Shown: in pieces, positions 4,292 to 22,107 of the stretch | How the letters are laid out: each line of letters opens with the position of its first letter | Numbering within the stretch: position 1 is the first letter of the stretch | NCBI GenBank assembly: GCA_963770895.1 | Contig: CAVYRF010000001.1 | Coordinates: 1,504,001 to 1,568,000, forward strand | Direction: 5' to 3' | Origin: an uncultured Acidobacteriota bacterium | GTDB taxonomy: Bacteria; Acidobacteriota; Thermoanaerobaculia; Multivoradales; UBA5704 | Length of the DNA stretch: 64,000 bases | The notes under the pieces: model-generated | The model's input: the letters and a program-made list of their open reading frames with translations, nothing else | Databases searched by the model: none | Told to the model about the DNA's origin: nothing | Position numbers and translations under genes: made by a program

Positions 4292-4295
4292 GCGG

Positions 4296-4933: not shown

Positions 4934-7636
4934 TCAAGCCGCCGGCGTGGCGCCGGCCGCGGCTTCGGCGCCCGCCGGTGGTTGTTGGGCGCGCAGCGCA
5001 TCGACGCGTGCCGCGATGGCGGCCACCGTCGGCCGGGCGAAGAACTCGACCGCTGGGAAGCGAAGGTCGAACATCGCGCCGATGTTGGCGATCATCTGGG
5101 TCGCCATCAGCGAATGGCCGCCGAGGCGGAAGAAGTTGTCGTTGCGGCCCACTTCCTCGATTTTCAGGACCTCGGCGAACAGTCGGGCCACGGTGGCTTC
5201 GGTGGCGCTGAGCGGCGCCGCGGCCGCCGTGCCGGAGCCGCCGCCGCGCGCCGCCGCGGCTGGCGGGGCCGGCAGCGCGCCGCGGTCGATCTTGCCGTTC
5301 GGGTTGAGCGGCATTTCGTTCAGCCGCATGAACAGGTTGGGCACCATGTAGGGGGGCAGTTTCTGCTCCAGCAGTGCGCGCAGACGGTCTTCGAAGGTGT
5401 GCCGGTCTCCGGCTGCCGCCGTGGCTCCCTCCGGCGCGGTTGCCGCCGGGACGTAATAGGCGGTCAGCCGCATCTCGCCCGGCGCGGTCTCCGCCGCCAC
5501 CGCCACCGCCTCCTTCACGCCGGGGTCGGCGCGCAGAAGGGTTTCGATCTCGCCCAGTTCGATGCGCTGGCCGCGGATCTTCACCTGATGGTCGATGCGG
5601 CCGAGGAATTCCAGGTTGCCGTCCGGCAGGTAGCGAGCAAGGTCGCCGGTACGATACAGGCGTGCTCCCGGAGTGGCGGCAAAGGGGTCATCGACGAACT
5701 TTCGGGCAGTGAGGGCAGCGTCGTTGGCATAGCCCTGGCCGACGCCGTCGCCGGCCAGACAGATCTCGCCAGCGACGCCGATCGGCACCAGGTGCAGCCG
5801 CTCGTCCAGCACGTAGACCTTGCTGTTGTGAATCGGCCTGCCGATCGGCACCGAGGTACGGCTGTAGCGATCGAAGTCGATCAGCCGGTAGGCCGACGAC
5901 ACGTCGCTGCATTCGGCGGCGCCGTAGACGTTGACGATCTCGGCCGCGCGGCCTGGCGACGCCACCCAGCCCAGCAGGCGCGAGGCCGAGATCGCCTCGC
6001 CGCCCAGGAACAGACAGCGCAGCGATCGCAGGCTGGCGTGGCTGCCCGCCTCGGGCCCTTCGAGCAGCGGGTAGAAGGTGCTGGGGGCGCAGTTGAGCAG
6101 CGTGATCTCGGAGTTGCGCAGGGTGCGCAGCAGCAGCTCGGGGTCATACCCGTCCGGCACCAGGTGCAGCTCGCCCCCACGCGTCAGGGGCATGGCCATG
6201 CTGCGCTGGGTGAGGTCGAAGCTGATCGAGCTCATCAAGAGGTTCTTGTCGGCGGCCGAGATGGCGAAGTCGTGGCCGAACCACGACAGAAGGTTGGTCC
6301 AGCCGCGATGGTGGACCGCCGCGGCCTTGGGGCGGCCGGTCGAACCGGAGGTAAAGATGATGTAGCACAGATCTCCGGGCCCGCTGCGCCGCTCGGGTAG
6401 GTCGCCGGGACGCGCCGCCAGCGCGGCGGCGTCGCGGTCCACCAGGACCACGCGCGGTTTCCGGGCCGGCAGGCGATCGAGCAGCCGTTCGCTGGTGACC
6501 AGCGCCTTCAGCCTGACGCCCTCGAACATCACCGCCATGCGGTCGCTGGGATAGCTGGGATCGAAGGGCACGTAGGCGCCTCCCGCCTTGAGCACGGCCA
6601 GCACGGCCACCACCAGCGCGGGCGAGCGATTGAGGCAGATCCCGACCGGCGTGTTGGCGCCGGCGCCCAGGCTTTGCAGGTGATGGGCGAGCTGATTGGC
6701 GCGCCGGTCCAGCTCGCCGTAGCTGATCCGCAGCGGACCGTCCACCAGCGCAATGCGGTCGGGCGCCGCCGCCGCCTGCGCCGCGAACAGCTGATCCACA
6801 CAGACATCGCGCGGGTAGTTGTGCGCCGTGTCGTTCCAGTCGAAGAGCAGGCGCCGGCGCTCGCCTTCGTCGAGCATGCCGAGGTCGGCGAGAGCGGCGT
6901 TGGGGTCGCGCAGGCCGGCGTCGAGCAGCTGTGCCAGGTGGCACAACAAGCGTTCGACGGTGGCGGCCGCGAAGAGCAGCGGGCTGAAGGCGGCCCTGCC
7001 GCGCAGCCCATCGGGCACGCGCTCGAAGGTGATGGTCAGGTCGTTGCCGGTCGCCGGCAGCTCGCCGTGCAGGCCGCCGTGCACCAGCGCCACATCGAAC
7101 AGCGGGCAGCGGTCTGCCCCCGGTGGCAGGCCCAGGTCGCTCAGCAGCTGGGCGAACGGCACCTGCCGGTGGTCGTGCGCTTCGAGGAGAGCCTGGCGTA
7201 CGCGCAGGAGGGTCTGGCGGAAGCTCGCCTGCTCGTCGATCTCGCTGACCAGGACCAGGACGCTGTCCGCCGTGTCGTCCGCCGGGTTGCCGGTAGTGCG
7301 CACCGCCGCACAGCCGATGGCGATGGGCGACGCCTGGGTGTAGCGGTGCAGGCAGACGGCGAGCGTTGCCGCCAGCGCCACATGCTCGAGGAATGGCTCG
7401 CCGCCGGTCAGCTGGGAGAGACGGTCGAACAGCTGACCGCCCAGGACGATCTCCACGGAGGCGTTGTGGTCGAGCCGCCCGGCGGGGCGGCGATGGTCGG
7501 CGGGAGGACCCGCCGGACGCGGTCGAACCGCCAGCTTGTCGCGCCAGTAGCGGCGGCTTGCGGCGGCCGGGTCCTCGTCCGCGGCAACCGGCGGGGCGGC
7601 GCCGGCGGCCGCGGCGGTTTCGCTCACAGTGCTCAT
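4934..7636 (-). CDS. Stand-alone NRPS: half-C (interface-like) domain - A - T
   Basis: Starts at 'RYWRDKL' (C-terminal lobe only, no HHxxxDG). A motifs YIIFTSGSTGRPK, RTGDL and NGKID; T motif GGHSL. Hand-read code DLRNFGVDVK. RBS GGAGGG. Confidence 0.9.
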   Translation of the reverse strand: MSTVSETAAAAGAAPPVAADEDPAAASRRYWRDKLAVRPRPAGPPADHRRPAGRLDHNASVEIVLGGQLFDRLSQLTGGEPFLEHVALAATLAVCLHRYTQASPIAIGCAAVRTTGNPADDTADSVLVLVSEIDEQASFRQTLLRVRQALLEAHDHRQVPFAQLLSDLGLPPGADRCPLFDVALVHGGLHGELPATGNDLTITFERVPDGLRGRAAFSPLLFAAATVERLLCHLAQLLDAGLRDPNAALADLGMLDEGERRRLLFDWNDTAHNYPRDVCVDQLFAAQAAAAPDRIALVDGPLRISYGELDRRANQLAHHLQSLGAGANTPVGICLNRSPALVVAVLAVLKAGGAYVPFDPSYPSDRMAVMFEGVRLKALVTSERLLDRLPARKPRVVLVDRDAAALAARPGDLPERRSGPGDLCYIIFTSGSTGRPKAAAVHHRGWTNLLSWFGHDFAISAADKNLLMSSISFDLTQRSMAMPLTRGGELHLVPDGYDPELLLRTLRNSEITLLNCAPSTFYPLLEGPEAGSHASLRSLRCLFLGGEAISASRLLGWVASPGRAAEIVNVYGAAECSDVSSAYRLIDFDRYSRTSVPIGRPIHNSKVYVLDERLHLVPIGVAGEICLAGDGVGQGYANDAALTARKFVDDPFAATPGARLYRTGDLARYLPDGNLEFLGRIDHQVKIRGQRIELGEIETLLRADPGVKEAVAVAAETAPGEMRLTAYYVPAATAPEGATAAAGDRHTFEDRLRALLEQKLPPYMVPNLFMRLNEMPLNPNGKIDRGALPAPPAAAARGGGSGTAAAAPLSATEATVARLFAEVLKIEEVGRNDNFFRLGGHSLMATQMIANIGAMFDLRFPAVEFFARPTVAAIAARVDALRAQQPPAGAEAAAGATPAA

Positions 7637-7699: not shown

Positions 7700-10216
7700 T
7701 CAAAAGTTGAACTGCAGGTTGGCAAGCGGCCGCCCGGTCGCGCTCTCGCGATCTGCCGTGGTGGCGATCGGCACGTCGCCCAGCAGGATGCCCGGCTCGC
7801 GCGCGGCCGCCGCCAGGACCGCCAGCAGCGCCTGGCCGAGCGCATCGCCGCCGTGGGGCGCCGCGTCGCCGCGCTCCAGGATGCGCAGCAGCAGGCCGCC
7901 GGCGCACTCCTGTACCCGCAGGATCAGCTCGACGTCCCGATAGGCCGGTACGGCGAAGCGCTCAGGCCCGTCCGCACCGCCCTCGCCATCCTGCAAAGTG
8001 AAGAGGCCCGGCGCCTCCGGCGGCGGCGGCGGGACCTCGACGTAACCGACCGCAAACACTGGACGCGCCTTCAGCGCGCCGGGGATCCGCAGGGTGGCGC
8101 CGAATAGGCTGGCGGCGAAGCGGCGGTGGGGCGCGGCGGCCTCCAGCCTGGCGCGCACCGCATGCGCCAGCTCGCGAAAGGCGGTGCGCTCGCTCGCCGC
8201 CAGGCGCACGGGGAACGGCTGCCCGCCGTCGCTCGCCACGATCACCGCCAGGTCGGTACGGCCGTCGAGCCGCAGCAGCGCGGCGGCGAGCGCGGCGAGC
8301 AGCAGGCTGCCCCGCTCGACACCGCAGCCGCGTGCCAGCGCATCCAGACGCGGCCGTGCCAGGTCGAGCGGCGAGCCCGAGCTCCAGGAGGCGTCCACTT
8401 CGTCCGGCCCGGCCGCCGCCATGGTGCCGCCGCGCCCTACCGAGAGCGGCGTGGCGAACTCGTCGCGCCAGTAGCGTTCGGCCTGGCGGAACGTCTCCGC
8501 GGACAGCGGCTGTCCCTGGTCGTGCGCCCCCGCCGCCCGGTCCCCCTCGGCCGCCGGGCGGTCGAACTGGCAGGAGCGGCGCAGCGCTTCGATGAGGAGC
8601 GGCGAGCCTTCGCCGCGCACCGGCTGCAGCACCTGTTCGCGCACCACCGCGTTCCAGCTGCCGAGGAAGGTATCGATCTGGTCGAACGACATGCCGCGGT
8701 TCTGCAGCAGGAACAGCGACACGAAGTTGAAGCCCGGATCGGGCACCCACTGTGGCCGATCGAAGCGGAAGAAGCAGCTTTCCACCAGATCGCAGGCGGT
8801 GCTCACGTCCATGGTGTCGTGCGACCAGGAGAAGTGATAGCCGCGGATGCCGTAGCGATCGCGCTCGTTCCAGATGGGCGTCACCGGGTCGCAGTACCAG
8901 ATCAGCGGGCGGTAGAAGTCGGGTCTGGTCTCCTCCAGGAAGTCGATGGTTTCCAGGGCGCTGGCGTAGGTTTCGCCGGGGAAGCCGAAGAAGAGGGACG
9001 CGAAGACCTTGATCCCCGCCGCCTTGAAAAGCGGAATGACCGAGAGGTAGTGCCGCTTGCGCGGCGTTTTGTGCATATTGACCAGCATCTGGTCGTTGGC
9101 CGATTCGAGGCCGAGGAACACCCCCTGGCAGCCGGCCTGCGCCATCAGCTGGACGAGCTCCTCGTCGCAGAAGTCGGCGCGGAAGAAGCAGTGCCAGCGA
9201 AAGCCGTAGCGCTGGCGGATCATCATGCGCATCATCTCTTTGAAGGTCTGCAGCGGCACGTTCGCCGTGTCGTCCACGAAGAACAGGCCGGTCACCGTGC
9301 CGACGTCGCGGATGGCGTTGAGCTCGCGCTCGATGTATTCGAGCTTCGAGACGTCGTACTTTTCGGTGCGCAGCGGAAACGAACAGAACGAGCAGGTGAA
9401 CGGACATCCTTTGGTGATGCGCACATTGACGTAGCTGCCCACCATGTCGGGCGGGAACAGCGAGTAGTCGATGAGGTTTTCGTACAGCGAGTTGAACTCG
9501 CGCTCGCTGGTGGTCAGCAGGAAGCGATCGCCCTGCCGATAGGCGATATTGGGGATGGCGGCGAAGTTGCGGTCTCCCTTGAGCGCCAGCAGGAGGCGCG
9601 CCAGCGCCTGCTCGCCCTCGCGGCTGCGCACGTAGAAGTCGGCGTCGATGTACCTGAACACCGCCTGCAGGTCGCTCTCCTCCATCGATTCGGAGCGCTT
9701 GGCGATGTAAGGTCCGCCCACCACGATGTGGGTGTCGGGGCTGTGCTCGCGCAAGAAGTTGACGACTTCCAGGATCGGTGCGTCGTAGTTGTAGATGGTG
9801 GTGGTGACCACCGCGGTCAGGTAGCGCCTGGTGCGCAGCTTTTCGCGCAGCTCGTCCTTTTGCAGTTGGAACAGGTTGATGTAGTCGAAGCTGAAGCCGC
9901 GCCGCGCCAGATAGGTCCCCAGGTACATCACCACCATCCACAGCACCTCGGTGTTGTGGAACTTGCGGCGAATGTCGAGCCCCGGCCGGCCCTCGAAGTG
10001 GAAGTGATCCAGGATGTCCATCGCCCGCCAGGGCCGGCCCTGGTACTGGATGTAGTTGAGGCTGAGGTCGCGATAGTCGGGATGGCCGGCGCCCATGGCG
10101 CGCATCATGTCGACTTCCTGCGCGAACTCGCTATCGTTGTAGCCGATGATGAGGCAGTCGGTGAGCATGGCTGGGGCTCCCACGGCGGATGGGACCTGCT
10201 GGCCCGAGGTTCCCAT
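7700..10216 (-). CDS. PhpK-like (B12-dependent class) radical SAM enzyme fused to a C-terminal half condensation domain
   Basis: 'DCLIIGYND' N-terminus, 'VVGGPYI', CxxxCxxC motif 'CPFTCSFC', 'FVDDTAN', 'GLESAN'. The C-terminal ~270 aa start 'AERYWRDEF' and resemble a C-lobe. Alternative start at 10168. Confidence 0.85.
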   Translation of the reverse strand: MGTSGQQVPSAVGAPAMLTDCLIIGYNDSEFAQEVDMMRAMGAGHPDYRDLSLNYIQYQGRPWRAMDILDHFHFEGRPGLDIRRKFHNTEVLWMVVMYLGTYLARRGFSFDYINLFQLQKDELREKLRTRRYLTAVVTTTIYNYDAPILEVVNFLREHSPDTHIVVGGPYIAKRSESMEESDLQAVFRYIDADFYVRSREGEQALARLLLALKGDRNFAAIPNIAYRQGDRFLLTTSEREFNSLYENLIDYSLFPPDMVGSYVNVRITKGCPFTCSFCSFPLRTEKYDVSKLEYIERELNAIRDVGTVTGLFFVDDTANVPLQTFKEMMRMMIRQRYGFRWHCFFRADFCDEELVQLMAQAGCQGVFLGLESANDQMLVNMHKTPRKRHYLSVIPLFKAAGIKVFASLFFGFPGETYASALETIDFLEETRPDFYRPLIWYCDPVTPIWNERDRYGIRGYHFSWSHDTMDVSTACDLVESCFFRFDRPQWVPDPGFNFVSLFLLQNRGMSFDQIDTFLGSWNAVVREQVLQPVRGEGSPLLIEALRRSCQFDRPAAEGDRAAGAHDQGQPLSAETFRQAERYWRDEFATPLSVGRGGTMAAAGPDEVDASWSSGSPLDLARPRLDALARGCGVERGSLLLAALAAALLRLDGRTDLAVIVASDGGQPFPVRLAASERTAFRELAHAVRARLEAAAPHRRFAASLFGATLRIPGALKARPVFAVGYVEVPPPPPEAPGLFTLQDGEGGADGPERFAVPAYRDVELILRVQECAGGLLLRILERGDAAPHGGDALGQALLAVLAAAAREPGILLGDVPIATTADRESATGRPLANLQFNF

Positions 10217-10250
10217 GTATAAGTGCAACCCGCAGTGCGCCGGCCGCCGG

Positions 10251-11177
10251 TCAGACCTTGCGCGCCACGATCTGGAACGAGTCCGTCGGATTCACGCATT
10301 CGCCCGGCGTCGGCGTGCGATGGAATGTCGTTTTGCCGAAACCGTCGAACAGCCGCGCGATCTCCTCCTCGCCGCTCAGCATGTGTCGGGTGTGGACGCT
10401 GGCGAACTGGCGGAACAGCTCGAGCAGGCTGTCGCGGCCGCCGTCCGGGTGCTGCGGGAAGTGGTCGCCGTGCCCGGCCAGCAGCCGCTCGGCGCGCTCG
10501 GCATAGCCGCTGCGCAGCTCGGGGGTGGTGGCGCCGCCGATCATCGCGGTGGTGACCAGGGTGCCGCCCGGCTTGAGCAGCTCCCGCCAGCGCTTGACGA
10601 TCGTCGGCTTGTCCGCCGCCTTGATGACGGTCAGGAACTCGTCGGTGACGATGAGGTCGTAGGCGCCCAGCGGCAGGTCATCGGTGAGCAGGTTGGCGCG
10701 GGCACACTCGACCTGGAAGCCATGCCGGTCGGCATACCATTGGCAGGCGCGCAGCGGGGTGCGACAGATATCGTAGATCTCGATCCGTGGGGCGGCGTCC
10801 ACCTCGACCATCGCGGCGTACAGGGTGGCCAGCATGCCGTAGTCCGCCGCCGCCGAGATCAGCACCCGGCTGTGCGGGGCGCGGCGCAGCACCGCCGTGA
10901 GCGCCTCCTGGTAGAACTCGTACCAGGGTGGCGTCGCCACCATGTTGAGCAGGCGCAGGTACTGCCACGTGCCGTGATACCAGCTGCAGCTGATGTCCGG
11001 CAGGGCCTTGGCTTCCTGGTGTGTCTTGGCCCACTCTTCCATCCCGCCGGTCTCCTTGGCGCCGCAGTGCTGGGCTGCCCACGCCTCCATCAGCGGGGCC
11101 GATTCGATCAAGAGCTCGCGGTTGAACGGATCCAGCTCGTACAGGCGGATGGCAGGAGCGGTGGCTGTCGATGGCAT
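10251..11177 (-). CDS. Class I SAM-dependent methyltransferase-fold enzyme (degenerate motif I)
   Basis: GGAGG RBS before the ATG at 11177. 'RVLISAAAD', 'IYDIC', 'YDLIVTD', 'LLKPGGTLV'; N-terminal 'CSWYHGTWQYLRLL'. Confidence 0.75.
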   Translation of the reverse strand: MPSTATAPAIRLYELDPFNRELLIESAPLMEAWAAQHCGAKETGGMEEWAKTHQEAKALPDISCSWYHGTWQYLRLLNMVATPPWYEFYQEALTAVLRRAPHSRVLISAAADYGMLATLYAAMVEVDAAPRIEIYDICRTPLRACQWYADRHGFQVECARANLLTDDLPLGAYDLIVTDEFLTVIKAADKPTIVKRWRELLKPGGTLVTTAMIGGATTPELRSGYAERAERLLAGHGDHFPQHPDGGRDSLLELFRQFASVHTRHMLSGEEEIARLFDGFGKTTFHRTPTPGECVNPTDSFQIVARKV

Positions 11178-11294
11178 TCGTCTGTCCTCCAAAGGGTTTC
11201 CATAGGGCAGCGGGCTATGGCGCCGGGGCTACGCTCTGCTCACGCCCCTCGCGCGATGCGAAACGCCAGCGTCGCGACAAAATACACCAGATAA

Positions 11295-11324
11295 TTGAAA
11301 ATTGGAATCTTCCAAAATTTTCAA
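11295..11324. promoter_or_regulatory. Inverted repeat in AT-rich divergent promoter region (putative operator)
   Basis: TTGAAAATT-N12-AATTTTCAA with inner GGAA-TC-TTCC, lying between the divergent genes starting at 11177 and 11438. Confidence 0.55.
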
Positions 11325-11437: not shown

Positions 11438-12199
11438 ATGGCGACAGCGCTCAACCCCGACGCCTTCGTCCGCAAGCAGGACCGGCCCCGAGCCCGCCTG
11501 CGCCTGTTCTGTTTCACCTTCGCGGCATCGAGCGCACAGCTGTTCCACGGCTGGAACGACCACGTTCCCGAATGGATCGAGGTGAGCGGCTGCGAGCTGC
11601 CGGGGCACGGCGGCCGCCTGGCGGAGACACCGGTCTCCAACCAGCACGAAGCGGCGATCGAGATCGCCGATATGTTGGAGCCGGCTATCGATCGCCCCTA
11701 CGCTCTCTTCGGCCACTGCCTGGGCGCCGCCCAGGCATACGAGGCGACCCGCCTGCTGCGCCAGCGCGGCAAAGCGCAGCCGGTGCGCCTGTTCAGCTCC
11801 GGCGCGCGGGGACCCCATCTGGGTATCCCCATCGCCGACGTCGAAAGCATGGACGACGACGTATTCATCGAGCACATGCATCAGGCGTATGCGGCGCCGA
11901 TCGCCTTTTTGCGCCACCCCGAGATGCGGCCGCTCTTCCTGCCCATGGTGCGTGCCGACGCCCGCATGACACAGAACTACCGCTACGTGTCCGGCCCGCC
12001 GGTCGACTACCCGGTGACCGCGGTGGCGGGCGAGACCGACCCCGACGTGCAGATGGAGCACCTGGTCGCTTGGCGCGACCACACCACGGCGCCGGTGACG
12101 GCGCGCATCTACCCCGGGAACCATTTCTTCTTCATCGACAGCGCGCCGCAGCTGCTCGCCGATTTCGCTCGCGAGCTCGCGGCGAGCCTGCCCGGCTGA
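11438..12199 (+). CDS. Type II thioesterase-family protein with Cys nucleophile (GHCLG)
   Basis: GAGGAG RBS. 'RLFCF', 'ELPGHGGRL', 'ALFGHCLG' (11711-11725), 'PGNHFF'. Confidence 0.9.
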   Translation: MATALNPDAFVRKQDRPRARLRLFCFTFAASSAQLFHGWNDHVPEWIEVSGCELPGHGGRLAETPVSNQHEAAIEIADMLEPAIDRPYALFGHCLGAAQAYEATRLLRQRGKAQPVRLFSSGARGPHLGIPIADVESMDDDVFIEHMHQAYAAPIAFLRHPEMRPLFLPMVRADARMTQNYRYVSGPPVDYPVTAVAGETDPDVQMEHLVAWRDHTTAPVTARIYPGNHFFFIDSAPQLLADFARELAASLPG

Positions 12200-12214
12200 C
12201 CGGAAACCTTGCCG

Positions 12215-12682: not shown

Positions 12683-12757
12683 GAGCCCCGTGTCCGAGCC
12701 GGCCGACCGCCCCGCCCGCCCCGTGACGGAAGGCGCACCCGGGTCCGGAGTGTGCCG

Positions 12758-14086
12758 ATGAAGAGCCGCGGTATGGCAGCGTTCCTCGCCGTCTGGGCGG
12801 GGCAGGTGGTTTCCTCTCTGGGAACCGGTCTTAGCGGGTTCGCCCTCGGGGTATGGGTATACCAGCGGACGGGCTCGGCGACACGGTTCGCCCTCATTAC
12901 CTTGGTGACGACGCTGCCCGGCATTTTCCTGACACCGATCGCGGGCGCGCTGGTGGACCGCTGGGACCGTCGCCGGGCGATGATCCTGAGCAACGCGGGC
13001 GCGGGGTGCACCACCCTGATCCTCGCGCTCCTGTTCTGGTACGGCCGGCTGGAGCTCTGGCACATCTACCTCCTCCTGGCTCTCGGCTCGGCGTTCGGCA
13101 CCCTTCAGTGGCCGGCCTTTTCCGCGGCAACGACCCTGCTCGTCCCCAAGGAGCACCTCGGGCGCGCCGCCGGCCTGACGCAGGCGGGGGCAGCGGTCTC
13201 CGTGATCCTGGCCCCGGTGCTCGCCGGCGTTCTGGTAGTGAGGATCGGGCTCCAAGGGGTCGTGCTCGTCGACTGCGCGACCTTCGTCGTAGCGCTGGCT
13301 ACTCTCCTGTGCGTCCATGTGCCGCGCGCCGAGGTCACGGCGGAGGGACTGGCGACCCGGGGCTCCCTGCTGCGCGAGGCCGCATCGGGATGGTCGTACA
13401 TCCGCCAGCGGCCGGGCCTCCTGTCGCTGCTGGGTCTGAGCGCCGCGAGCAACTTCAGTGTGGGGATGATGCAGGTCCTGGTGACTCCGATGATCCTCTC
13501 CTTCACCTCGGCCGCCGTGCTGGGCCGCGTGATGTCGGTGGCCGGGGTCGGCATGCTCGCGGGCAGTCTACTGATCAGTGTGTGGGGCGGGCCCTCGCGG
13601 CGGGTTTTGGGCATCCTCGGCTTCATGATGCTCCAGGGCGCCATCCTCTTGGCTGGAGGGCTGTGGCCCAGCGCGATACTCATTGCCGCGGCGGGGTTCG
13701 TGTTCCTGTTCACCGTGCCGATCATCCTCGGCTGCAGCCAGGCCATCTGGCAGTCCAAGGTCGCGCCGGACCTGCAGGGACGGGTGTTCGCGGTGCGCAG
13801 GATGGTGGCCTGGTCGACCCTGCCGCTGAGCTACCTCATCACCGGGCCTCTGACGGACCGCGTCTTCGAGCCGCTGCTCGCGGTGAACGGCCCTCTCGCG
13901 GGCAGCGTCGGACGGCTCATCGGAGTGGGGAAGGGGCGTGGGAGCGCCCTTCTCCTCATCCTCCTCGGGGTACTCGTCATGGTGACGGCCGCGGCGTTCT
14001 CCCGGTACTCCCGGCTGCGGCAGCTCGAGTCGGAGCTGCCGGACGTACTACCGGAAACGTGGCTGGAACCGGCGTCGCAGACATAA
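12758..14086 (+). CDS. MFS transporter (NRPS-associated exporter)
   Basis: About 12 hydrophobic segments; motif A 'GALVDRWDRRRAM'; 'WQSKVAPDLQGRVF'. Confidence 0.9.
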   Translation: MKSRGMAAFLAVWAGQVVSSLGTGLSGFALGVWVYQRTGSATRFALITLVTTLPGIFLTPIAGALVDRWDRRRAMILSNAGAGCTTLILALLFWYGRLELWHIYLLLALGSAFGTLQWPAFSAATTLLVPKEHLGRAAGLTQAGAAVSVILAPVLAGVLVVRIGLQGVVLVDCATFVVALATLLCVHVPRAEVTAEGLATRGSLLREAASGWSYIRQRPGLLSLLGLSAASNFSVGMMQVLVTPMILSFTSAAVLGRVMSVAGVGMLAGSLLISVWGGPSRRVLGILGFMMLQGAILLAGGLWPSAILIAAAGFVFLFTVPIILGCSQAIWQSKVAPDLQGRVFAVRRMVAWSTLPLSYLITGPLTDRVFEPLLAVNGPLAGSVGRLIGVGKGRGSALLLILLGVLVMVTAAAFSRYSRLRQLESELPDVLPETWLEPASQT

Positions 14087-14427
14087 ATAGAAGGTTGAAC
14101 GTCATGCATGTTAAGACGACAATTTACAGGATTTCAAGTTATGCAGGACCGTAATACACTGTGTCTAGCCGTCGGCTACAAGCGGCGGGCTCAACGCCTG
14201 GGTTGATCCGCGTCGATGGGGCAAGGGGAAGCTGATGCCTTCAGTGAACATCGACCGCGCCATCGTCGACGCGACTCTCGAAGCCGGAGGCCGGAGGACA
14301 GCTTACTGCCGCGGCACTTTCGTAGCAGTCCAGGAAGGCCATCCCGCCTGTCACGAAGGGTAGTCCTTGCCATGCGGCCCAATAGCCTGATTGAAATCTT
14401 TCGAGCCGAGACTCTGGAGAGCTGGTT

Positions 14428-17400
14428 GTGACCGGGCGGCTCAAGGACCTGATCATTCTGCGCGGACGCAACTACTACCCGCAGGATATCGAGCGCACGG
14501 CCGCGCGGGTCCACCCGGCCCTGCGGCCGGACGGCGGAGCGGCCTTTTCGATCGAGCGCGAGGGCACAGCGCGCCTGGTGGTGGCGCAGGAGGTCGAGCA
14601 CGGCCGTGCGGATGTGCCGGATATGGCAGCTCTCGCCGAGGAGGTCCGGCGGATGGTTGCCGACGAGCTCGAGGTCGCGGTCGACGAGGTCGTGCTCCTG
14701 CGTAGCGGGACCCTCCCCAAGACCACCAGCGGCAAGGTCCGGCGCCAGGCTTGCCGGGAGGAGTACCTCGCGGGGAGGCTTTCCGTCGCCGGGCGCAGCG
14801 GGCTCGCCGCCGGCCGGGATCTGCCGGAAGACACCCCCACCAGCTTTGGCGATCTCGGGACGCTCGATCCGGCTGCCATCCGGGCGCTCGTCGCCGCGGA
14901 GGCCGCGCGCGTCCTCGGTCTCGACCCCGGAAGGCTGATGCCGGACCGTCCCCTCGCCGCGCTCGGACTGGACTCGCTGGCCGCTGTCGAGCTCAAGGCG
15001 GGACTGGAAGAGAAATCCGGTGTCTCCTTGTCGCTCACCCGGCTGCTCTCCGGGGCGAGCCTGGCGTCCGTCGCGGCGGAGGTGCTGGCGGGATCGGCGG
15101 TGCCGCGCCAGGTGCCGGAGTTGGAGATCGGGGCTCCTCTCGGCGACCATCCCCTCTCGGCAGGGCAGGAGGCTCTCTGGTTCTCCGACCGGCTGGCTCC
15201 GGAGGCCGCCGCTTACAATGTGGCGACGGCCGTCCACGTCGAGGGGGGGCTCGACCCGGAAGCCCTGGGGCGCTCCCTCCAGGCTCTGGCCGACCGCCAT
15301 CCGGCCCTGCGGACCACTTTCTTCTCTCAGCTCGGCGAGCCGCGCCAGATCGTTCACGAGCGCCTCGCCGTGGATTTCCGCGTCGAGCCATCGGGGTCGA
15401 AGGGGGCGGAGATCCCGCTCGTGGCCGAGGCCTACCGCCCATTCGATCTCGAAAACGAGTCTCTTCTACGGGTCCGGGTCTGGCCTCTGGAGGGTGGCGG
15501 CTGGCTTTTGCTCCTCGTCGTACACCATCTGGTGACCGATTTCTGGTCGCTCGGCCTCTTCGTCCGGGAGCTTGCAGCGCTCTATGGCGAGGCGACCGGC
15601 CAGGGACCGGCGCGGCTCGCACCCCTGCCGCTCGGCTACACCGACTACGTCCGCTGGCAGGGCAATCTTCTTGCCGGGGAGCAAGGTGAGCGGCTCTGGG
15701 AGCACTGGCGCCAACAGCTCTCGGGAGATCTTCCCGTGCTTGAGCTGGTGACGGACCGTCCCCGTCCCGCCGTCCAGACATATATCGGCCTCTCCCGCGG
15801 CCTGCGCCTCGCGCCCGAGCTTGCGGACCGGCTGCGGGCGCTCAGTCTGGCTTCGGGAACGACGCTCTTCGTCACTCTTCTGGCCGGGTTCCAGGCTCTC
15901 CTTGGCCGTTGCACCGGACAGGATGAGGTCGTGATCGGCTCCCCCACGGTGGGCCGGGGCGCCGCGCCCTTCCTGGGGGTGATGGGCTACTTCGTCAACC
16001 CGGTGGCGCTCCGCCTCTCCAGCGCCGGCGATCCTGCCTGGCGCGATCTCCTTTCGTTCGCCAAGGCGGTTTGTCTCGCCGCATTCGAGCACCGGGATCT
16101 CCCCTTTGCCACCTTGGCCGAGCGGCTCCATCCCGAGCGAGACCCCAGCCGTTCCCCGGTTTTCCAGACACTCTTCGCGCTCCAGAAGGCGCAGCGGCCG
16201 GAGGAGAGGGGCCTGGCGGAACTCGCCGCCGGAATAGAGAGGGCTCGGGCCACTCTGTCGGATCTCGAGCTCGTTGCCGTCCCCCTCGAGGAGTGCCGCT
16301 CTCCCTTCGACCTCACGTTGACGGCCGCCGATGCCGAGGCGGGCCTCCCGATCGTCCTGCAAGTCAACCGCGACCTCTTCGATCCCGCTACGGCGGAACG
16401 CCTTCTGCGTGCTCTCGAAAATCTGCTGTACGCCCTGGCTGAGGATCTCGATGCCCGAGTCTCCGCGGCCGAGATGCTCGGGGACGCGGAGCGCCGGCAA
16501 TGCGAGGCCTGGAGCCGCACCACGGTCGAGCTGCCGCGCGGCCTCTGCCTGCCGGACCTCTTCGCCGCGCAGGCGGAGCGCACTCCGGGGCGAGAGGCCC
16601 TCGTCGCCGGCAGTGAGCGTCTCACCTACCGAGAGCTGAGCCGTCGGGTGGAGATCCTGGCGCGGAGGCTTCGCGTCCTCGGCGTCGGACCGGAGAGCCG
16701 GGTCGGGGTTTCCGTCGGCCGATCCGCCGATCTCGTCGTCGCGCTTCTCGCGGTCTTGCGGGCAGGCGGCGCCTACGTGCCGCTCGACCCCGTTCAGCCC
16801 GCCGAGCGGCTCGCCTGGATGCTGCAGGACTCCGGGGCGGAGGTGTTGCTCGTCGAGGAGCGCCTCGCTCCAGGCCTGCTGGCAGCCGGGGTGCCCGCAC
16901 GCTGCCGAATCGTCTTGCTCGACCGCGGCGCGCACCGCAGCAGAGCCCAGCGGGGGATCCAGGGACGGCAAGATCCCATACTGCCCGGAAATCTCGCCTA
17001 CCTGATCTATACCTCGGGATCGACGGGACGGCCGAAGGGAGTGGCGATCGAGCACCGGAGCGCGGTGACGCTCGTACAGTGGGCGCGGCAGGTCTTCACG
17101 GACGCCGAGCTGTCCGGGGTCCTCGCCGCCACCTCGATCGGCTTCGACCTCTCGGTCTTCGAGCTCTTCGTACCTCTTTGCTGGGGTGGCCGGGTGATCC
17201 TGGCCGAGAATGCCCTGGCCCTCCCCGGACTGCCCGCGGCGGGCGAGGTGCGGCTGGTCAACACCGTGCCTTCGGTCCTCGCCGAGCTGGTCCGTGGGGA
17301 GGACGGGCTGGAGCTGCCGGGCTCGGTCACCACGATCAACCTGGCCGGAGAGCCCCTGCCGCGCTCCCTGGTGCGGGCCATCCACGAGAAACACCCGGCG

Positions 17401-20400
17401 GCGCGGGTGCTCAACCTCTACGGCCCTTCCGAGGACACCACCTACTCGACGTTCGCCGTGGTCTCGCCGGACGGAGAGCTGCCGCCGGCCATCGGCCGGC
17501 CGATCGCCAACACCCAGGCCCATGTGCTGGACCGCGGCAGACGCCAGGTGCCGGCCGGCGTGCCAGGCGAGCTCCATCTCGGCGGAGAGGGTCTGGCGCG
17601 CGGCTACCACGGGCGGCCGGATCTCACGGCGGAGCGGTTCGTGCCGGACCCGTTCGCGACGGGAGCGCGGCTCTACAGGACCGGGGACCTGGCCCGCTGG
17701 CGGCCGGACAGGGAGCTCGAGTTCCTCGGCCGCATCGATCATCAGGTGAAGATCCGCGGCGTCCGCATCGAGCCGGCGGAAGTGGAATCGGCGCTGCTCT
17801 CGCGGCCGGGAGTGCGCGAGGCGGTGGTCCTGCCGCAGGGGGAGGGTAGCGACCGGCGCCTCATCGCCTATGTCGTCGCCGAGACCGGTGCGGAGCTGGA
17901 CGAGGGCGCCCTCCGCGAGTCGCTCCTCGGGCTCCTGCCGCGGGCCATGGTGCCCGCGGCGATCGTGCCAGTTCCCGGGCTGCCGCTCACTCCGAACGGC
18001 AAGCTGGACCGCCGCGTCCTGGCGCGGCTCGCCCCGGAGCCATCGGCAGGTGGAGGAGGGGAGCCCGCGGCGCCGCGCTCGCCGGTGGAGGAGCTGCTCG
18101 CCGGCATCTGGACGGAGGTCCTCGGGGTCGAGCGGGTAGGGGCGGGAGACGACTTCTTCGCGCTCGGCGGGCATTCCCTTCTCGCTCCGCGCGTCCAGGC
18201 ACGGGTGCGCGAACGGCTCGGCGCCGAGCTGCCGCTCTCCGTGTTCTTTCAGCATCGCACGCTGGCGGAGCAGGCGCGGCGGCTCGCCGTCCGCAAGGTG
18301 GACGACCGCCCTCCACTTCGTCCGTCGCCGCGGGAGCGGACCGTTTTTCCTCTCTCCTTCGCTCAGGAACGCGTCTGGTTCCTCGAGCGGCTCGAGCCGG
18401 GCACAGCGGTCTATCACATGGCCGGCAGCACCCGCCTGACCGGCCCACTCGATCTCGCGGCGTTACGCCGCGCGCTTTGCGAGCTCGAGCGGCGGCACGA
18501 CGCCCTCCGCGCCCGGTTCCGGGAAGTAGACGAGATCCCGGTCCAGGAGATCGCCCCTGGGGGGCTGGACGGTCCGGAGTTGCCGGTCGTGTGCCTCGGG
18601 GGGTTGGAACCGGCGGCGCAGGAAGCCGAGGCGGAGCGTCTCACCAGAGACGAAGCCCAGCGCCCCTTCGATCTGGAGAACGGGCCGCCGTGGCGGCTCC
18701 TTCTCCTGCGCAAAGATTCCTGCCTTCACGAGCTCCTCATCACTCTGCACCACATCGCCGCCGATGAGGAATCGCTGGTGATCCTGGCGCGGGAGCTGGC
18801 CGCGCTCTATGCCGCCTTCCACAAAGGAAGGCCTCCCAGGTTGCCGGAGTTGCCGCTGCGCTCCGTTGACTTTGCCCTGTGGCAGAGGGAAGGGCTGGTT
18901 GGCGAGGTGCTGGAGAAGCGGCTCGCCTGGTGGCGGGAACGCCTGGCCGATCTCCCCATCATCGAGGTGGCGGCCGACCGTCCTCGTCCTGAGGCGCGGA
19001 GCTCCCGTGGGGATGTGGTCACCACCGTTTTGTCGCCGGCCCTCGCCGATGCCCTCGCTGCTCTGGGCCGCCGGGAGGGCGTCACGTTGTTCATGGTGCT
19101 CCTCGCCGGCTTCCAGGTCATCCTGGAGCGGATCTCTGGCGAGCCTGAGGTGCCGGTCGGCTGTCCGGTCTCCAACCGCGACCGCGAGCCGATCCTCCCG
19201 GTGATCGGTTTCCTGGTCAACACCCTGGTCCTCCGAGCGAGCAGCACAGCGGCCCCAAGCTTCGGCGGATTCCTGCGGCGGGTGCGGGAAGTCACCGTCG
19301 AGACCTTCGAGCATGGTGATGTCCCGTTCGAGCTGCTGGTCCAAGCACTCCAGCCGGAACGGGCTCTCGGCCGCAACCCACTCTTCGAGGTGGCTTTCGC
19401 GCTCCAGCGGCCACCCCATGGCTGGCAGGTCGACGATCTCGCCTTCGCGCCTCGGATCGTGCCGACCAGGACGGCCAAGTTCGCCCTCACCCTGTTCGCC
19501 ATCGCAGAGGAGGGGAAGCTCTCGCTTCTCCTCGAGTACGCGACGGACCTCTTCGACCGGCCGACCCCGGCGCGCCTGCTGGGTTACCTCGAAACGCTGC
19601 TCGCCGTGGCGGCCGCGGAGCCTGCGCGCCCTCTCGCCCTGCTCCCCTTGTTCGCTCCGGCGGAGCAGCAGGAGCTGATCCATCATCCGGAAGCACGGCT
19701 CTTTCGCAAGGTGGCGAGGGCGCGCGTCCCGGAGAGTCGCGGGGAGAATGGGCCGCGCGTCCTGGCCGCTCCGCGGACTCCCACCGAGGAGCGGCTGGTC
19801 GAGATCTGGGCCGGTGTGCTGGAACGCAGGCAGGTGTCGATCCACGACGACTTCTTCAGCCTCGGTGGCCATTCGCTCCTGGCCTCTCGGGTCGTGGCAC
19901 GGATTCGCAAATCCCTGGGCGTCGACCTGCCGCTCTCGATCCTCTTCACCTGTCCGACCATCGCGCGACTGGCCGGCGAGGTCGACCGCGCGCGCCGCGC
20001 TGCCGATGCGGGCGTGACGGAGGTAGAGCCGGTGGCGGCACCCCTCACCTTCCGCTGGGAGGACGGCTCCGCCCCACCGCTTTCCTTTGCTCAGGAGCAG
20101 CTCTGGTTCATTGACCAGCTGGAGCCGGGGAGCCCGGTTTACAACCTCTCCACCGCCGTATGCCTCGATGGGGCTCTCGACCGGAATGCCCTGCGCAGGG
20201 CTCTGGTCCAGGTCGTCGAGCGCCACTCGGTCCTCCGCACGACCTTGCGCGCCTTCGAGGGGCGACCGGTCCAGGTCGTGGCGCCGCATTTCCTCCCCGT
20301 CCTGCACGAGATCGATCTCCTGGATCTCGCTCCCGGAGTGCGGCAGGACGAGGCGGCGCGCCATGTGGCGGCCGGGGCGCTCGCCCCCTTCGACCTTGCC

Positions 20401-22107
20401 GAAGGCCCCCTCTTCCGCGCTTCCTTGCTGCGGCTGGGCGAGAACAGCCACCTCCTGCTTGTCACCTTCCATCACTCCATCACCGACGGCTGGTCGTTGC
20501 GTATCTTCTATGAAGAGCTCGGGGCGCTCTATGCGGCAGTCCATGGGGAGGTGCCGGTCCTCCCGGCTCTGCCGATCCAATACGCCGACTTCGCCTCCTG
20601 GCAGCGTGAGCGGCTTCGCGGCGGCGTGCTCAAGCGCCTGATCGCCTACTGGCGGCAGCGGCTGGCCGGTGCCCCCGCTGTTCTCGACCTGCCGTTCGAC
20701 CGTCCGCGTCCGCCGGTCCAGACCTACGGCGGCACCTCACAACTCCTGGAGATCGGCACCGAGGCCACACAGGCCCTCCGTACCTTCGCCCGCGACGAGA
20801 GCGCAACCCTCTTCATGGCGCTTACCGCCGCGTGGGCGACACTCCTGCACCTGCTGAGCGACGAGGAGGACGTGATCCTGGGGACTCCCACGGCCAACCG
20901 TTCGCTCCCCGAGCTCGAGCCGCTCATCGGCTTGTTCGCCAACACCATCCCCCTGCGCGTTGATCTCTCGGGAGATCCGACATTCCGCGAGCTCGTCGGA
21001 CGGGTCCGGACCGCAGCGCTGGCCAACTTCGCCCATCAGGAGATGCCGTTCGAGAAGATCGTCGAGGAGCTGAAGCCCGAACGCGACCTCAGCCACCATC
21101 CGATCTATCAGGTGGCCTTCGCGCTCGAGACGTCGTCCCGGCCGGACTTCCTGGACCTCCCCGGCCTGCGGATGGCGCCGCTGCCTCCGACCGAGGGGAC
21201 GGCGAAGTTCGACCTCGCCCTCTACATGGACGACCGCGGCGGCCGGCTCGCCGGTCTGTTCGAGACGAACCGCGATCTTCTCGACCGCAGCACGGCCGCG
21301 CGCTGGCTCGGACACTTCACGGCCCTCGCCGCGGCGGGGGCGGCAGATCCGGCGCGGCGCCTCTCGGAGCTGCCGTTGCTCGGCCCGGCCGAGCAGCTCG
21401 AGCTCCTCAGCCGCGTCGGTGAGCGGGTGAAGGTCCGCGGCTACAGGATCGATCCCCGGATCGTCGAGGCCTCCCTCGTCGGCCATCCGGCGGTCGGCTC
21501 CGCGATCGTGATCCGGCGCGCCGATCCGCCCGCGGAGGAGCGGCTCGTCGCCTATGTGACGGTGCGGCCGGAGCGCTCGGCTCCCAGCGGGGGAGAGCTG
21601 CGCTCGTTTCTCGCCGGGCGCCTGCCCGAGTACATGCTGCCCGGCGCGTTTGTCGTCCTCGCCGATCTGCCACGGACCGCCGGCGGTGAGCTCGACCTGG
21701 GCGCCCTGCCTGTGCCGCAGGAGAAGGCCGACCTCGGCGGCGACCCTATGGCGCCGGGTGACGGTGCTGACGGTGCGGGGCGGATCGTCGCCGAGATCTG
21801 GCAGGAGCTCCTGGAGGTCGAGAAGGTCGAGCTGCGCGACAACTTCTTCGCTCTCGGCGGGCACTCGCTCCTGCTTCTCCCAATGCAGGAGCGCCTGCGC
21901 GAGCGGTTCGGAGTCAGTCTGCCGATCATCGAGCTGTTCAAGTTCCCGACCGCGGGCGCGCTCGCCGCACACCTGGCTGCGAGGAGGGCTGCGGAGGCCC
22001 CCCGTCCCCCCGCGAAGACCCTGGACCGCAGCGACGCTTTGCGCCAGGGCCGCGAGCGGCTGAAGCAGCGCGCGGAGCGGCATGCCCGCAAGACAGGAGC
22101 GAGGTAA
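14428..22107 (+). CDS. NRPS1: FAAL C-terminal fragment - ACP - C-A(Ala)-T - C-T - C-Asub-T
   Basis: 'TGRLKDLIILRGRNYYPQDIE..LPKTTSGK' (FAAL C-subdomain); ACP 'LGLDSL'. C motifs HHLVTD, HHIAAD and HHSITDG. One full A domain with code DLFNNALTYK; three GGHSL T domains. Confidence 0.9.
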   Translation: MTGRLKDLIILRGRNYYPQDIERTAARVHPALRPDGGAAFSIEREGTARLVVAQEVEHGRADVPDMAALAEEVRRMVADELEVAVDEVVLLRSGTLPKTTSGKVRRQACREEYLAGRLSVAGRSGLAAGRDLPEDTPTSFGDLGTLDPAAIRALVAAEAARVLGLDPGRLMPDRPLAALGLDSLAAVELKAGLEEKSGVSLSLTRLLSGASLASVAAEVLAGSAVPRQVPELEIGAPLGDHPLSAGQEALWFSDRLAPEAAAYNVATAVHVEGGLDPEALGRSLQALADRHPALRTTFFSQLGEPRQIVHERLAVDFRVEPSGSKGAEIPLVAEAYRPFDLENESLLRVRVWPLEGGGWLLLLVVHHLVTDFWSLGLFVRELAALYGEATGQGPARLAPLPLGYTDYVRWQGNLLAGEQGERLWEHWRQQLSGDLPVLELVTDRPRPAVQTYIGLSRGLRLAPELADRLRALSLASGTTLFVTLLAGFQALLGRCTGQDEVVIGSPTVGRGAAPFLGVMGYFVNPVALRLSSAGDPAWRDLLSFAKAVCLAAFEHRDLPFATLAERLHPERDPSRSPVFQTLFALQKAQRPEERGLAELAAGIERARATLSDLELVAVPLEECRSPFDLTLTAADAEAGLPIVLQVNRDLFDPATAERLLRALENLLYALAEDLDARVSAAEMLGDAERRQCEAWSRTTVELPRGLCLPDLFAAQAERTPGREALVAGSERLTYRELSRRVEILARRLRVLGVGPESRVGVSVGRSADLVVALLAVLRAGGAYVPLDPVQPAERLAWMLQDSGAEVLLVEERLAPGLLAAGVPARCRIVLLDRGAHRSRAQRGIQGRQDPILPGNLAYLIYTSGSTGRPKGVAIEHRSAVTLVQWARQVFTDAELSGVLAATSIGFDLSVFELFVPLCWGGRVILAENALALPGLPAAGEVRLVNTVPSVLAELVRGEDGLELPGSVTTINLAGEPLPRSLVRAIHEKHPAARVLNLYGPSEDTTYSTFAVVSPDGELPPAIGRPIANTQAHVLDRGRRQVPAGVPGELHLGGEGLARGYHGRPDLTAERFVPDPFATGARLYRTGDLARWRPDRELEFLGRIDHQVKIRGVRIEPAEVESALLSRPGVREAVVLPQGEGSDRRLIAYVVAETGAELDEGALRESLLGLLPRAMVPAAIVPVPGLPLTPNGKLDRRVLARLAPEPSAGGGGEPAAPRSPVEELLAGIWTEVLGVERVGAGDDFFALGGHSLLAPRVQARVRERLGAELPLSVFFQHRTLAEQARRLAVRKVDDRPPLRPSPRERTVFPLSFAQERVWFLERLEPGTAVYHMAGSTRLTGPLDLAALRRALCELERRHDALRARFREVDEIPVQEIAPGGLDGPELPVVCLGGLEPAAQEAEAERLTRDEAQRPFDLENGPPWRLLLLRKDSCLHELLITLHHIAADEESLVILARELAALYAAFHKGRPPRLPELPLRSVDFALWQREGLVGEVLEKRLAWWRERLADLPIIEVAADRPRPEARSSRGDVVTTVLSPALADALAALGRREGVTLFMVLLAGFQVILERISGEPEVPVGCPVSNRDREPILPVIGFLVNTLVLRASSTAAPSFGGFLRRVREVTVETFEHGDVPFELLVQALQPERALGRNPLFEVAFALQRPPHGWQVDDLAFAPRIVPTRTAKFALTLFAIAEEGKLSLLLEYATDLFDRPTPARLLGYLETLLAVAAAEPARPLALLPLFAPAEQQELIHHPEARLFRKVARARVPESRGENGPRVLAAPRTPTEERLVEIWAGVLERRQVSIHDDFFSLGGHSLLASRVVARIRKSLGVDLPLSILFTCPTIARLAGEVDRARRAADAGVTEVEPVAAPLTFRWEDGSAPPLSFAQEQLWFIDQLEPGSPVYNLSTAVCLDGALDRNALRRALVQVVERHSVLRTTLRAFEGRPVQVVAPHFLPVLHEIDLLDLAPGVRQDEAARHVAAGALAPFDLAEGPLFRASLLRLGENSHLLLVTFHHSITDGWSLRIFYEELGALYAAVHGEVPVLPALPIQYADFASWQRERLRGGVLKRLIAYWRQRLAGAPAVLDLPFDRPRPPVQTYGGTSQLLEIGTEATQALRTFARDESATLFMALTAAWATLLHLLSDEEDVILGTPTANRSLPELEPLIGLFANTIPLRVDLSGDPTFRELVGRVRTAALANFAHQEMPFEKIVEELKPERDLSHHPIYQVAFALETSSRPDFLDLPGLRMAPLPPTEGTAKFDLALYMDDRGGRLAGLFETNRDLLDRSTAARWLGHFTALAAAGAADPARRLSELPLLGPAEQLELLSRVGERVKVRGYRIDPRIVEASLVGHPAVGSAIVIRRADPPAEERLVAYVTVRPERSAPSGGELRSFLAGRLPEYMLPGAFVVLADLPRTAGGELDLGALPVPQEKADLGGDPMAPGDGADGAGRIVAEIWQELLEVEKVELRDNFFALGGHSLLLLPMQERLRERFGVSLPIIELFKFPTAGALAAHLAARRAAEAPRPPAKTLDRSDALRQGRERLKQRAERHARKTGAR

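Follow-up and report, generated by a model that had tools for sequence, protein, structure and literature searches.

A cysteine thioesterase as candidate shuttle between an off-line radical SAM cassette and adenylation-less modules of an acidobacterial peptide-polyketide assembly line

We wondered how an NRPS (non-ribosomal peptide synthetase) might be supplied with amino acids at modules that lack a working adenylation (A) domain. Two such modules are found in NRPS1 of a single hybrid NRPS-polyketide synthase (PKS) cluster, which spans 4.9-43.4 kb of a 64,000-nucleotide stretch of DNA (hereafter the window; G+C ~70%) from an uncultured Acidobacteriota bacterium (GenBank assembly GCA_963770895.1, contig CAVYRF010000001.1, positions 1,504,001 to 1,568,000 of the forward strand). 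In this cluster a minus-strand trio of genes for an S-adenosylmethionine (SAM)-fold enzyme, a radical SAM enzyme and a stand-alone loading module diverges from the plus-strand genes across a spacer of 245 bases, and the first of the plus-strand genes encodes a type II thioesterase. We propose, with a confidence that stands midway between doubt and conviction, that this is a hybrid NRPS-PKS line that receives one residue, manufactured off-line, by way of a thioesterase shuttle. The proposal starts from direct observations: the anatomy of the cluster, a conserved Cys in the thioesterase, genes that are linked, A domains in cis that erode step by step, and purifying selection on condensation (C) and carrier (T) domains of the A-less modules.

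The original prediction, made from the sequence and its open reading frames, had placed the trio opposite a type II thioesterase with Cys instead of the catalytic Ser and had noted that two modules of NRPS1 have no working A domain. We called the parts with Pfam domains and with a domain map from hidden Markov models (HMMs) built in this analysis, and recovered the trio and the thioesterase where they had been predicted. The parts on which the argument turns are:

4934..7636, minus strand: stand-alone loading module C'-A-T, the loader (Pfam Condensation (partial), AMP-binding and PP-binding; own-HMM map), with C' at 6827-7636, A core at 5618-6814, A subdomain at 5264-5611 and T at 4991-5221
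7700..10228, minus strand: B12-binding radical SAM enzyme with C-lobe X (Pfam B12-binding and Radical_SAM; TIGR04479, 640.4 bits; CPFTCSFC)
10251..11192, minus strand: class-I SAM-methyltransferase-fold enzyme (Methyltransf_25 below cut-off; AlphaFold2 model)
11438..12199, plus strand: type II thioesterase with Cys nucleophile (PF00975, 125.2 bits against a cut-off of 26.4; RifR match)
14428..22107, plus strand: NRPS1 (Pfam; own-HMM map; A-remnant alignment)
NRPS1 N-terminal part, plus strand: relic of the C-subdomain of a fatty acyl-AMP ligase (FAAL), residues 7-120 (14428-14790); T0 at 14872-15093
NRPS1 module 1, plus strand: C1 at 15142-16461, A1 at 16537-18027, T1 at 18067-18294
NRPS1 module 2, plus strand: C2 at 18325-19638, T2 at 19765-19995, A domain absent
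NRPS1 module 3, plus strand: C3 at 20050-21369, A-subdomain relic at 21400-21717, T3 at 21763-21987

The thioesterase has 253 residues and matches RifR over residues 11-249 in a search of PDB sequences (E = 7.7e-41). Its nucleophile elbow reads GHCLG, with Cys94 (codon 11717-11719) at the place of the nucleophile; Asp201 and His229 are retained. In this the enzyme departs from the canonical Ser-Asp-His triad with Ser in GxSxG. We found homologues in 123 database sequences and aligned 36 of the 120 listed. No homologue falls between 57% and 40% identity. On the near side of this gap (at least 57%) 19 of 19 aligned sequences read GHCLG, and on the far side (at most 40%) 17 of 17 read GHS.G, with Asp and His invariant throughout. 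A maximum-likelihood tree separated the Cys and Ser groups by a branch of ~1.5 changes per site with 100/100 support. The same division was seen in 80 loci fetched from species-representative genomes, where hits of at least 58% identity had Cys (10/10) and all lower hits had Ser (72/72). The Cys loci are labelled Thermoanaerobaculia, Terriglobia, Candidatus Angelobacter and Blastocatellia, and because they bear these four labels the Cys clade is old within the Acidobacteriota. The exchange of Ser for Cys that had been predicted is thus a property of a whole clade. Kinase and sigma-54 genes in the window might have suggested a myxobacterium as the source; we set this origin aside because the records of the nearest homologues bear the labels Thermoanaerobaculia/Acidobacteriota.

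On these sequence features the thioesterase is a candidate for a carrier-to-carrier aminoacyl shuttle. A Cys hydrolase of the Dieckmann-cyclase type (NcmC/TrdC; PMC10956176) is unlikely, as there was no such PDB hit at E 1e-5 and the alignment to RifR runs from end to end. No SyrC, CmaE or CysB entry was present among the PDB sequence hits of the thioesterase, and in the main texts of the open-access literature we found no description of a PF00975 shuttle with a Cys nucleophile.

Shuttles of other kinds have been described. In the SyrB1/SyrB2/SyrC (syringomycin) and CmaA/CmaB/CmaD/CmaE (coronamic acid) systems an alpha/beta-hydrolase with a Cys nucleophile transfers an aminoacyl group that was tailored on a free carrier. 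The tailoring in these systems is an Fe/2-oxoglutarate-dependent halogenation, unlike the radical SAM chemistry expected here. In syringomycin biosynthesis the acceptor is an A-less C-T module. The combination seen in the window had originally not been recognised from any characterised pathway. The same logic has in fact been characterised in cystobactamid, legonindolizidine, WS9326A and SyrC/CmaE. For cystobactamid, Asn is loaded by the stand-alone CysH and tailored while carrier-bound, by an in-cis domain of CysH and by CysJ and CysQ in trans. CysB then transfers it to CysK module 3, the A domain of which has no A10 lysine (PMC7966384). If the roles that we assign are right, the window shares with this system the stand-alone loader, the tailoring on a tethered carrier, the shuttle of alpha/beta-hydrolase type and a dead acceptor A domain whose A10 lysine is lost. 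It differs in that the shuttle is a RifR-type PF00975 protein, whereas CysB is SyrC-like (20% identity to SyrC; PMC7966384), in that tailoring would fall to a PhpK-family B12 radical SAM enzyme and a SAM-fold enzyme, in that the acceptor A domain is physically truncated and not merely inactive, and in that C-lobe pseudo-domains are present on both the loader and the radical SAM enzyme.

A parallel to the thioesterase itself is LgnA of the legonindolizidine pathway, a PF00975 protein with the canonical triad Ser77-Asp184-His212 in GHSxG that moves Thr from an A-T carrier to a C-T carrier and is discussed alongside WS5/WS20 of WS9326A and SyrC (PMC8748450). As with LgnA and WS5/WS20, a stand-alone thioesterase of PF00975 type is found here beside a stand-alone A-T unit and an A-less C-T module. 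Unlike LgnA, every clade member examined has Cys at the nucleophile, and the residue moved by LgnA is untailored. A paper of 2024 lists these shuttle cases, and also reports an A-less module that does without an enzyme of this kind (PMC10956176). What sets the present system apart within the known theme of an off-line module plus shuttle is the Cys clade of RifR type, the PhpK-type methylase tethered by a C-lobe and the series of eroding A domains.

We compared the gene neighbourhoods of the Cys thioesterases with those of the radical SAM enzymes (G and L numbers are our handles for genomes and loci). In the off-line cassette a radical SAM::X gene precedes a C'-A-T gene which stops after its carrier; this form was found in 8 places (window, G005, G017, L047, L048, L050, L053 and L055). 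The SAM-fold gene lies beside this pair everywhere but in L055, where it follows the PKS (on L132). A Cys thioesterase adjoins the cassette in 7 of the 8 places; in the eighth, G017, the contig stops inside the SAM-fold gene. Five genomes have an in-line form instead, at L009/L010 (G015), L012/L011 (G003), L013 (G001), L005 (G007) and L008 (G024). Here an upstream NRPS gene ends in a complete C domain and is followed by the radical SAM gene and then by C'-A, and the module continues with T-C where the contig is long enough (G015, G003, G001). Of the four in-line genomes checked for X, G015 and G001 have it on the radical SAM enzyme, and G007 and G024 gave no X hit. In the five in-line genomes we found no thioesterase of the Cys clade, the best thioesterase hit being only 34-35% identical. 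Of the comparative evidence, this contrast between off-line cassettes with and in-line modules without the Cys thioesterase speaks most strongly for an enzyme that serves to return the residue to the line.

Three loci of the Cys clade (L051, L052 and L054) have no cassette. In L051 (8305-12539) the thioesterase lies beside a fusion of a PhyH dioxygenase to a carrier and a PhzF homologue, with no NRPS module within 10 kb. This presumably resembles the arrangement of CmaB/CmaD/CmaE, and we counted it as an independent context for a shuttle.

If a residue is supplied in trans, what became of the A domains of the receiving modules? No AMP-binding hit was obtained between C2 and T2, and after C3 there was a hit to AMP-binding_C only (Pfam and own-HMM map). 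The A remnant of module 3 is a tail of ~100 residues in which the alignment places Glu at the position of the A10 lysine, and the claim that neither module has a working A domain held up. Across the lineages in which NRPS1 was readable, the A domains of modules 2 and 3 form a series:

L055 plus L132: module 2 A full length; module 3 A full length, core motifs intact
G017: module 2 A full length; module 3 A ~170 residues, from about motif A6
L048: module 2 A ~80 residues; module 3 A ~170 residues, from about motif A6
Window, G005, L046 and L047: module 2 A none; module 3 A ~100 residues, from motif A8

At A10 the module 3 remnant has Lys in L048, Arg in G017 and Glu in the window. All five lineages that have A-less modules retain intact HHxxxD motifs in C1-C3 and intact carrier serines. 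The ratio of non-synonymous to synonymous rates (dN/dS) between the window and L048 lies at 0.15-0.34 across the NRPS1 domains, with 0.26 for C2, 0.31 for T2, 0.19 for C3 and 0.27 for T3, and reaches 0.82 in the linker between C2 and T2. Compared with G005, where changes are few, T2 gave 0.30 and T3 0.33. Between the window and G017 no part is better conserved than C3 (78% identity). We read this as modules 2 and 3 being at work, their own A domains having become dispensable, and not as a dead cluster. The C2 motif in the lineages without A2 reads HHIAADE(E/D)S and not HHxxxDG; a homologue with full A2 has HHIVSDGWS.

The N-terminus of NRPS1 has been truncated as well. The core of the FAAL is deleted in the window, which also orphans the T0 carrier, and one further relic lies just upstream:

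14372..14431, plus strand: relic of 19 codons from the N-terminus of the FAAL, in a different frame (sequence read; homology to the intact FAAL of L048)

The TGA of this relic overlaps the GTG start of NRPS1. Measured against the intact FAAL of L048 (~11250-13000), the deletion in the window amounts to ~1.3 kb, is out of frame and leaves the C-subdomain, the relic of which is 87% identical to L048. The very closely related G005 (dS 0.06; L041 3372-3530) has a different, non-nested deletion which is in frame and leaves ~40 N-terminal residues. L048 has an intact FAAL, and L050, L053 and L055 appear to have one; the window, G005, L046 and L047 lack it.

We then asked what the off-line cassette might do to the residue. 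The first radical SAM enzyme belongs to the PhpK family by HMM over residues ~24-528 and ends in the extension X (7703-8548; 282 residues). Its start is probably the one set by the gene caller, 20 codons downstream of the TTG, giving 822 residues (P0245). The window encodes a second enzyme of this kind, and TIGR04479 (PhpK P-methyltransferase; cut-off 600) scored 640.4 and 641.9 bits for the two, which are 38% identical to each other and both have a B12-binding domain and a CxxxCxxC motif (CPFTCSFC in the first). The second has a 72% identical relative in G024 (L008), whose in-line position has a C domain on one side and a C'-A unit on the other. By the curated cut-off and by these parts the two resemble PhpK/BcpD (TIGR04479). 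They differ from PhpK/BcpD by their NRPS context, seen in 10/10 loci examined, by the fusion of the first to a C-lobe and by the lack of a phosphoenolpyruvate (PEP) mutase over cut-off: the best match in the genome, which is 95% complete, reached 42.5 bits against a cut-off of 319.55, and there was none in the window. Because the genome holds no PEP mutase over cut-off, a phosphinate substrate is unlikely.

The A domains served by the in-line relatives differ in their specificity positions, which we read by hand from alignments, as throughout; amino acids were assigned tentatively from the known specificity codes. By these codes one type is presumably aromatic-looking and another presumably Cys-like, the latter with an embedded methyltransferase. 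The served A domain of G015 has a class-I methyltransferase inserted into it. That a phosphinate residue is P-methylated, as the TIGR04479 match would suggest, is unlikely in view of the missing PEP mutase and the differing A codes of the in-line relatives, and the same two reasons favour C-methylation of residues bound to carriers.

The original prediction had described both C' and X as half-C pieces. Both are indeed partial C domains; that they might be complementary halves was not borne out. C' matches Pfam Condensation at positions 193-456 only. X has no Pfam hit, and was aligned by hhalign to columns 190-440 of a 440-column C profile made from the window's own eight C domains (97.8%, E = 9.8e-13). 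Neither piece covers the columns before ~190, which hold the N-terminal HHxxxDG lobe, and because the profiles align to C-terminal columns we take both to be C-terminal lobes. The two halves of a split C domain can be discarded on the same ground; BLASTP of X against C' aligned 53 residues at E 0.008.

X ends in an LQFNF tail, which is conserved in 6 of 10 aligned sequences (three others end at the HMM envelope). When X and C', each given as an alignment, were predicted as a complex, the interface score (interaction prediction score from aligned errors, ipSAE) was 0.63, the best of 3 controls scoring 0.00. In the calibration the ipSAE mark is reached by 58 of 80 solved complexes and by 2 of 110 mismatched pairs, counts that are roughly valid here since we used our own alignments. 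The runs share at least 62% of contacts, and the partner has a predicted local distance difference test (pLDDT) of at least 79. Confident contacts link X residues 275-282, the LQFNF tail, to C' residues 75-87, 112, 140-154 and 245. The model supports binding of X to C' and would fit a methylase that is held on the loader and acts on a tethered residue. The methylation on the free carrier that the original prediction had envisaged would follow from this predicted contact only.

No radical SAM enzyme fused to a condensation-domain lobe was found described in the open-access literature (again main texts). The nearest parallel is DscE of the discodermin pathway, also a cobalamin radical SAM methylase that serves a non-ribosomal peptide: this pairing of a B12 radical SAM C-methyltransferase with an NRPS was called unusual in 2025, DscE methylates the released peptide in vitro, and it is not described as fused to NRPS pieces or as placed inside a module (PMC12858407). 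By analogy, the second radical SAM enzyme of the window, encoded after the terminal thioesterase (TE), could work like DscE.

The loader itself is a product of 900 residues with complete A and T domains (Pfam), and its carrier keeps an intact Ser. Its ten specificity positions are identical, save for Leu/Ile at the second, in five lineages (window, G017 and the loci labelled Thermoanaerobaculia, Candidatus Angelobacter and Blastocatellia). Arg at the third and Asn at the fourth position are presumably reminiscent of the aminoadipate code, a likeness that does not assign the substrate.

The SAM-fold product has 308-313 residues (308 by the gene caller). Methyltransf_25 matched at 25.7 bits, below cut-off, and the AlphaFold2 model (pLDDT 86.6) has a class-I methyltransferase fold. 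Foldseek placed CysG and BelI best (TMq 0.48), VIA-align gave Z ~16-17 to many class-I methyltransferases in a flat ranking, and a protein atlas search led to generic methyltransferase clusters only. AzeJ and VioH, SAM cyclases of the azetidine-carboxylate synthase type, were not among the sequence and fold matches listed, though a flat list of similar Z discriminates weakly. The family is well conserved across 388 homologues, which include records labelled Microbispora and Stellaceae. In the alignment it has SAAADYG in place of the glycine-rich SAM loop and many invariant Cys, His and Trp. These features hint at a metal site or at chemistry beyond plain methyl transfer.

Taken together, the following route could be envisaged. 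The C'-A-T protein would activate an amino acid and hold it on its own carrier. The radical SAM enzyme, predicted to dock through the tail of X on the loader's C', would methylate the tethered residue at an unactivated carbon, and the SAM-fold enzyme might add a further SAM-dependent modification. The thioesterase would then take the aminoacyl group onto Cys94 as a thioester and pass it to an A-less carrier of NRPS1, most likely T3, possibly T2.

Several points weigh against this scheme. Every catalytic step in it is one that we infer. The likeness of the thioesterase to SyrC, CmaE and CysB, a Cys nucleophile in an alpha/beta-hydrolase, is one of description and not of sequence comparison. The docking prediction may lean on solved C-domain structures, and its partners are products of neighbouring genes. 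In G017 (89% complete) no thioesterase of the Cys clade was detected despite the cassette and the truncated module 3. In L052 and L054 the thioesterase follows a C-A-T with a different code, presumably Pro-like, and no radical SAM gene lies within 10 kb. The A-subdomain relic of module 3 (dN/dS 1.4) and T0 (0.9) gave roughly neutral estimates against G005, where changes are few, and T2 is only 42% identical to L046/L047 at a nearly neutral dN/dS of 0.9. The end points of the FAAL deletions differ between the window and G005, which could be a sign that the cluster is decaying. The chief doubt is raised by L055 plus L132 (labelled Blastocatellia), where the cassette and the Cys thioesterase coexist with full-length A domains and intact core motifs in modules 1-3 and no second TE is present in the stretch read; there the thioesterase may release the chain or act otherwise, now or formerly. 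Transfer in trans to A-less modules, as originally put forward, thus agrees with the single Cys clade, the off-line linkage and the decay of cis A domains under constraint on C and T domains, and disagrees with the full A domains of L055 plus L132. Homologous clusters had been expected to contain A-less modules: L055 plus L132 do not, and other lineages do.

Among other explanations the one that survives best, unlikely as we hold it to be, is that A1 or the A domain of the loader loads T2 and T3 directly in trans and that the Cys thioesterase has an editing or housekeeping role. Trans-acting A domains are an established solution for A-less modules in capreomycin (CmnI/CmnA-A1; PMC12400406), with yersiniabactin and viomycin named as further precedents (PMC7539972), and deletion of a type II thioesterase homologue had no effect in bripiodionen (PMC10956176). 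The thioesterase of the window is a full-length homologue of RifR, which would suit such a role. However, a strict exchange of Ser for Cys on a long 100/100 branch is unexpected for an editing hydrolase, the clade goes together with the off-line cassette and did not turn up in the in-line genomes, and pure trans-adenylation would have no need of the loader's intact carrier.

Somewhat less probable still, in our view, is that the thioesterase off-loads the loader's residue, by hydrolysis or by transfer to a hydroxyl or amine of the chain such as the hydroxyl made by the PKS ketoreductase, or that it releases the chain, the A-less modules being skipped or acting as non-elongating relays. This would account for L055 plus L132, where every A domain has its full length and no TE other than the Cys thioesterase is seen in the stretch read. 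For FR900359, the TE of a separate C-A-T-TE protein performs a side-chain transesterification. Release and renewed activation of residues tailored on stand-alone modules has also been described (PMC7966384). The purifying selection on C2, T2, C3 and T3 and their intact motifs fit poorly with modules that nothing loads, C3 being the part best conserved towards G017, and an amino acid once set free could not be activated again in cis in the absence of A3.

It is improbable, to our mind, that the cluster is simply decaying and that the deletions of FAAL, A2 and A3 are pseudogenisation unrelated to the cassette. Three adenylating domains have gone, the window and G005 lost the FAAL by independent deletions, the former out of frame and the latter in frame, and the overall dN/dS against G005 is 0.50. 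Against this, the NRPS1 frames stay open over 2,470 to 3,283 codons in five lineages, dN/dS of the domains against L048 is low, all deletions inside NRPS1 are in frame with C and T motifs intact, and the domain order is identical in L046 and L047 at only ~70% identity.

In vioprolide biosynthesis a radical SAM enzyme is paired with a SAM cyclase of methyltransferase fold, and the first A domain of NRPS2 has a code that is presumably Pro-like. We nevertheless find it scarcely credible that the radical SAM enzyme and the SAM-fold enzyme act on free SAM, with C-methylation, cyclisation to a methyl-azetidine or methyl-cyclopropane amino acid and later activation by an A domain, as with norcoronamic acid, where a B12 radical SAM enzyme methylates SAM before cyclisation (PMC7277169): AzeJ and VioH are absent among the matches listed, albeit in a flat list, and the C-lobe, the predicted docking on the loader and the in-line placement with varied A codes point to carrier-bound substrates.

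Manufacture of the residue off-line and its return by the Cys thioesterase might be one instance of a broader course of events, which we advance tentatively and with less confidence than the scheme for the window. Acidobacterial B12 C-methylases of PhpK type would have been built into NRPS lines by dead C-lobe adaptors, one on the methylase with its LQFNF docking tail and one at the N-terminus of the A-T unit that is served. Once this A-T unit was detached, a RifR-type clade with Ser changed to Cys would return the methylated residue, whereupon the cis A domains became redundant and were lost piecewise. If the mechanism holds, a PF00975 protein that reads GHCLG would be a sequence marker for carrier-to-carrier shuttles and would help to annotate NRPS clusters that seem broken by missing A domains. 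B12 radical SAM chemistry would be physically coupled to NRPS carriers by a half-C piece, offering engineers a docking device, and the lineages above would form a natural series of an assembly line shedding its cis A domains after a supply in trans has arisen. The clusters would then also point to unknown methylated lipopeptide-polyketides in uncultured soil Acidobacteria.

On the plus strand the thioesterase gene is followed by a transporter gene of the major facilitator superfamily (MFS), NRPS1, a PKS module, a stand-alone C gene, NRPS2 and the second radical SAM gene:

12752..14086, plus strand: MFS transporter between thioesterase and NRPS1 (Pfam MFS_1, 104 bits; syntenic in G005)
22123..26784, plus strand: PKS module of ketosynthase, acyltransferase, ketoreductase and acyl carrier protein (KS-AT-KR-ACP), following T3 (Pfam)
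26784-28235, plus strand: stand-alone C-domain gene, 483 residues, between PKS and NRPS2
41779..43431, plus strand: second PhpK-family B12 radical SAM enzyme, without X (Pfam; TIGR04479, 641.9 bits)

The stand-alone C-domain gene is coupled to the PKS and to NRPS2 by overlapping stop and start codons, and because of this overlap we set the start of NRPS2 at the ATG at 28231 and not at 27083. These frames recur in G005, and L133 has one fused gene with a single C domain. NRPS2 comprises four C-A-T modules and a TE, and the second radical SAM gene begins inside its last codons, after the TE. A scan of 11100-14500 for promoters and terminators gave one promoter-like site only, on the minus strand. 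Just upstream of the FAAL relic, a short A+T-rich stretch (14087-14170) stands out from surroundings of 70% G+C and is likely the promoter region of NRPS1. At the other border of the cluster, an open frame with DUF3631 (2980-5211) extends for ~280 bases into the convergent C'-A-T gene at its 3' end and is possibly the edge of a mobile element.

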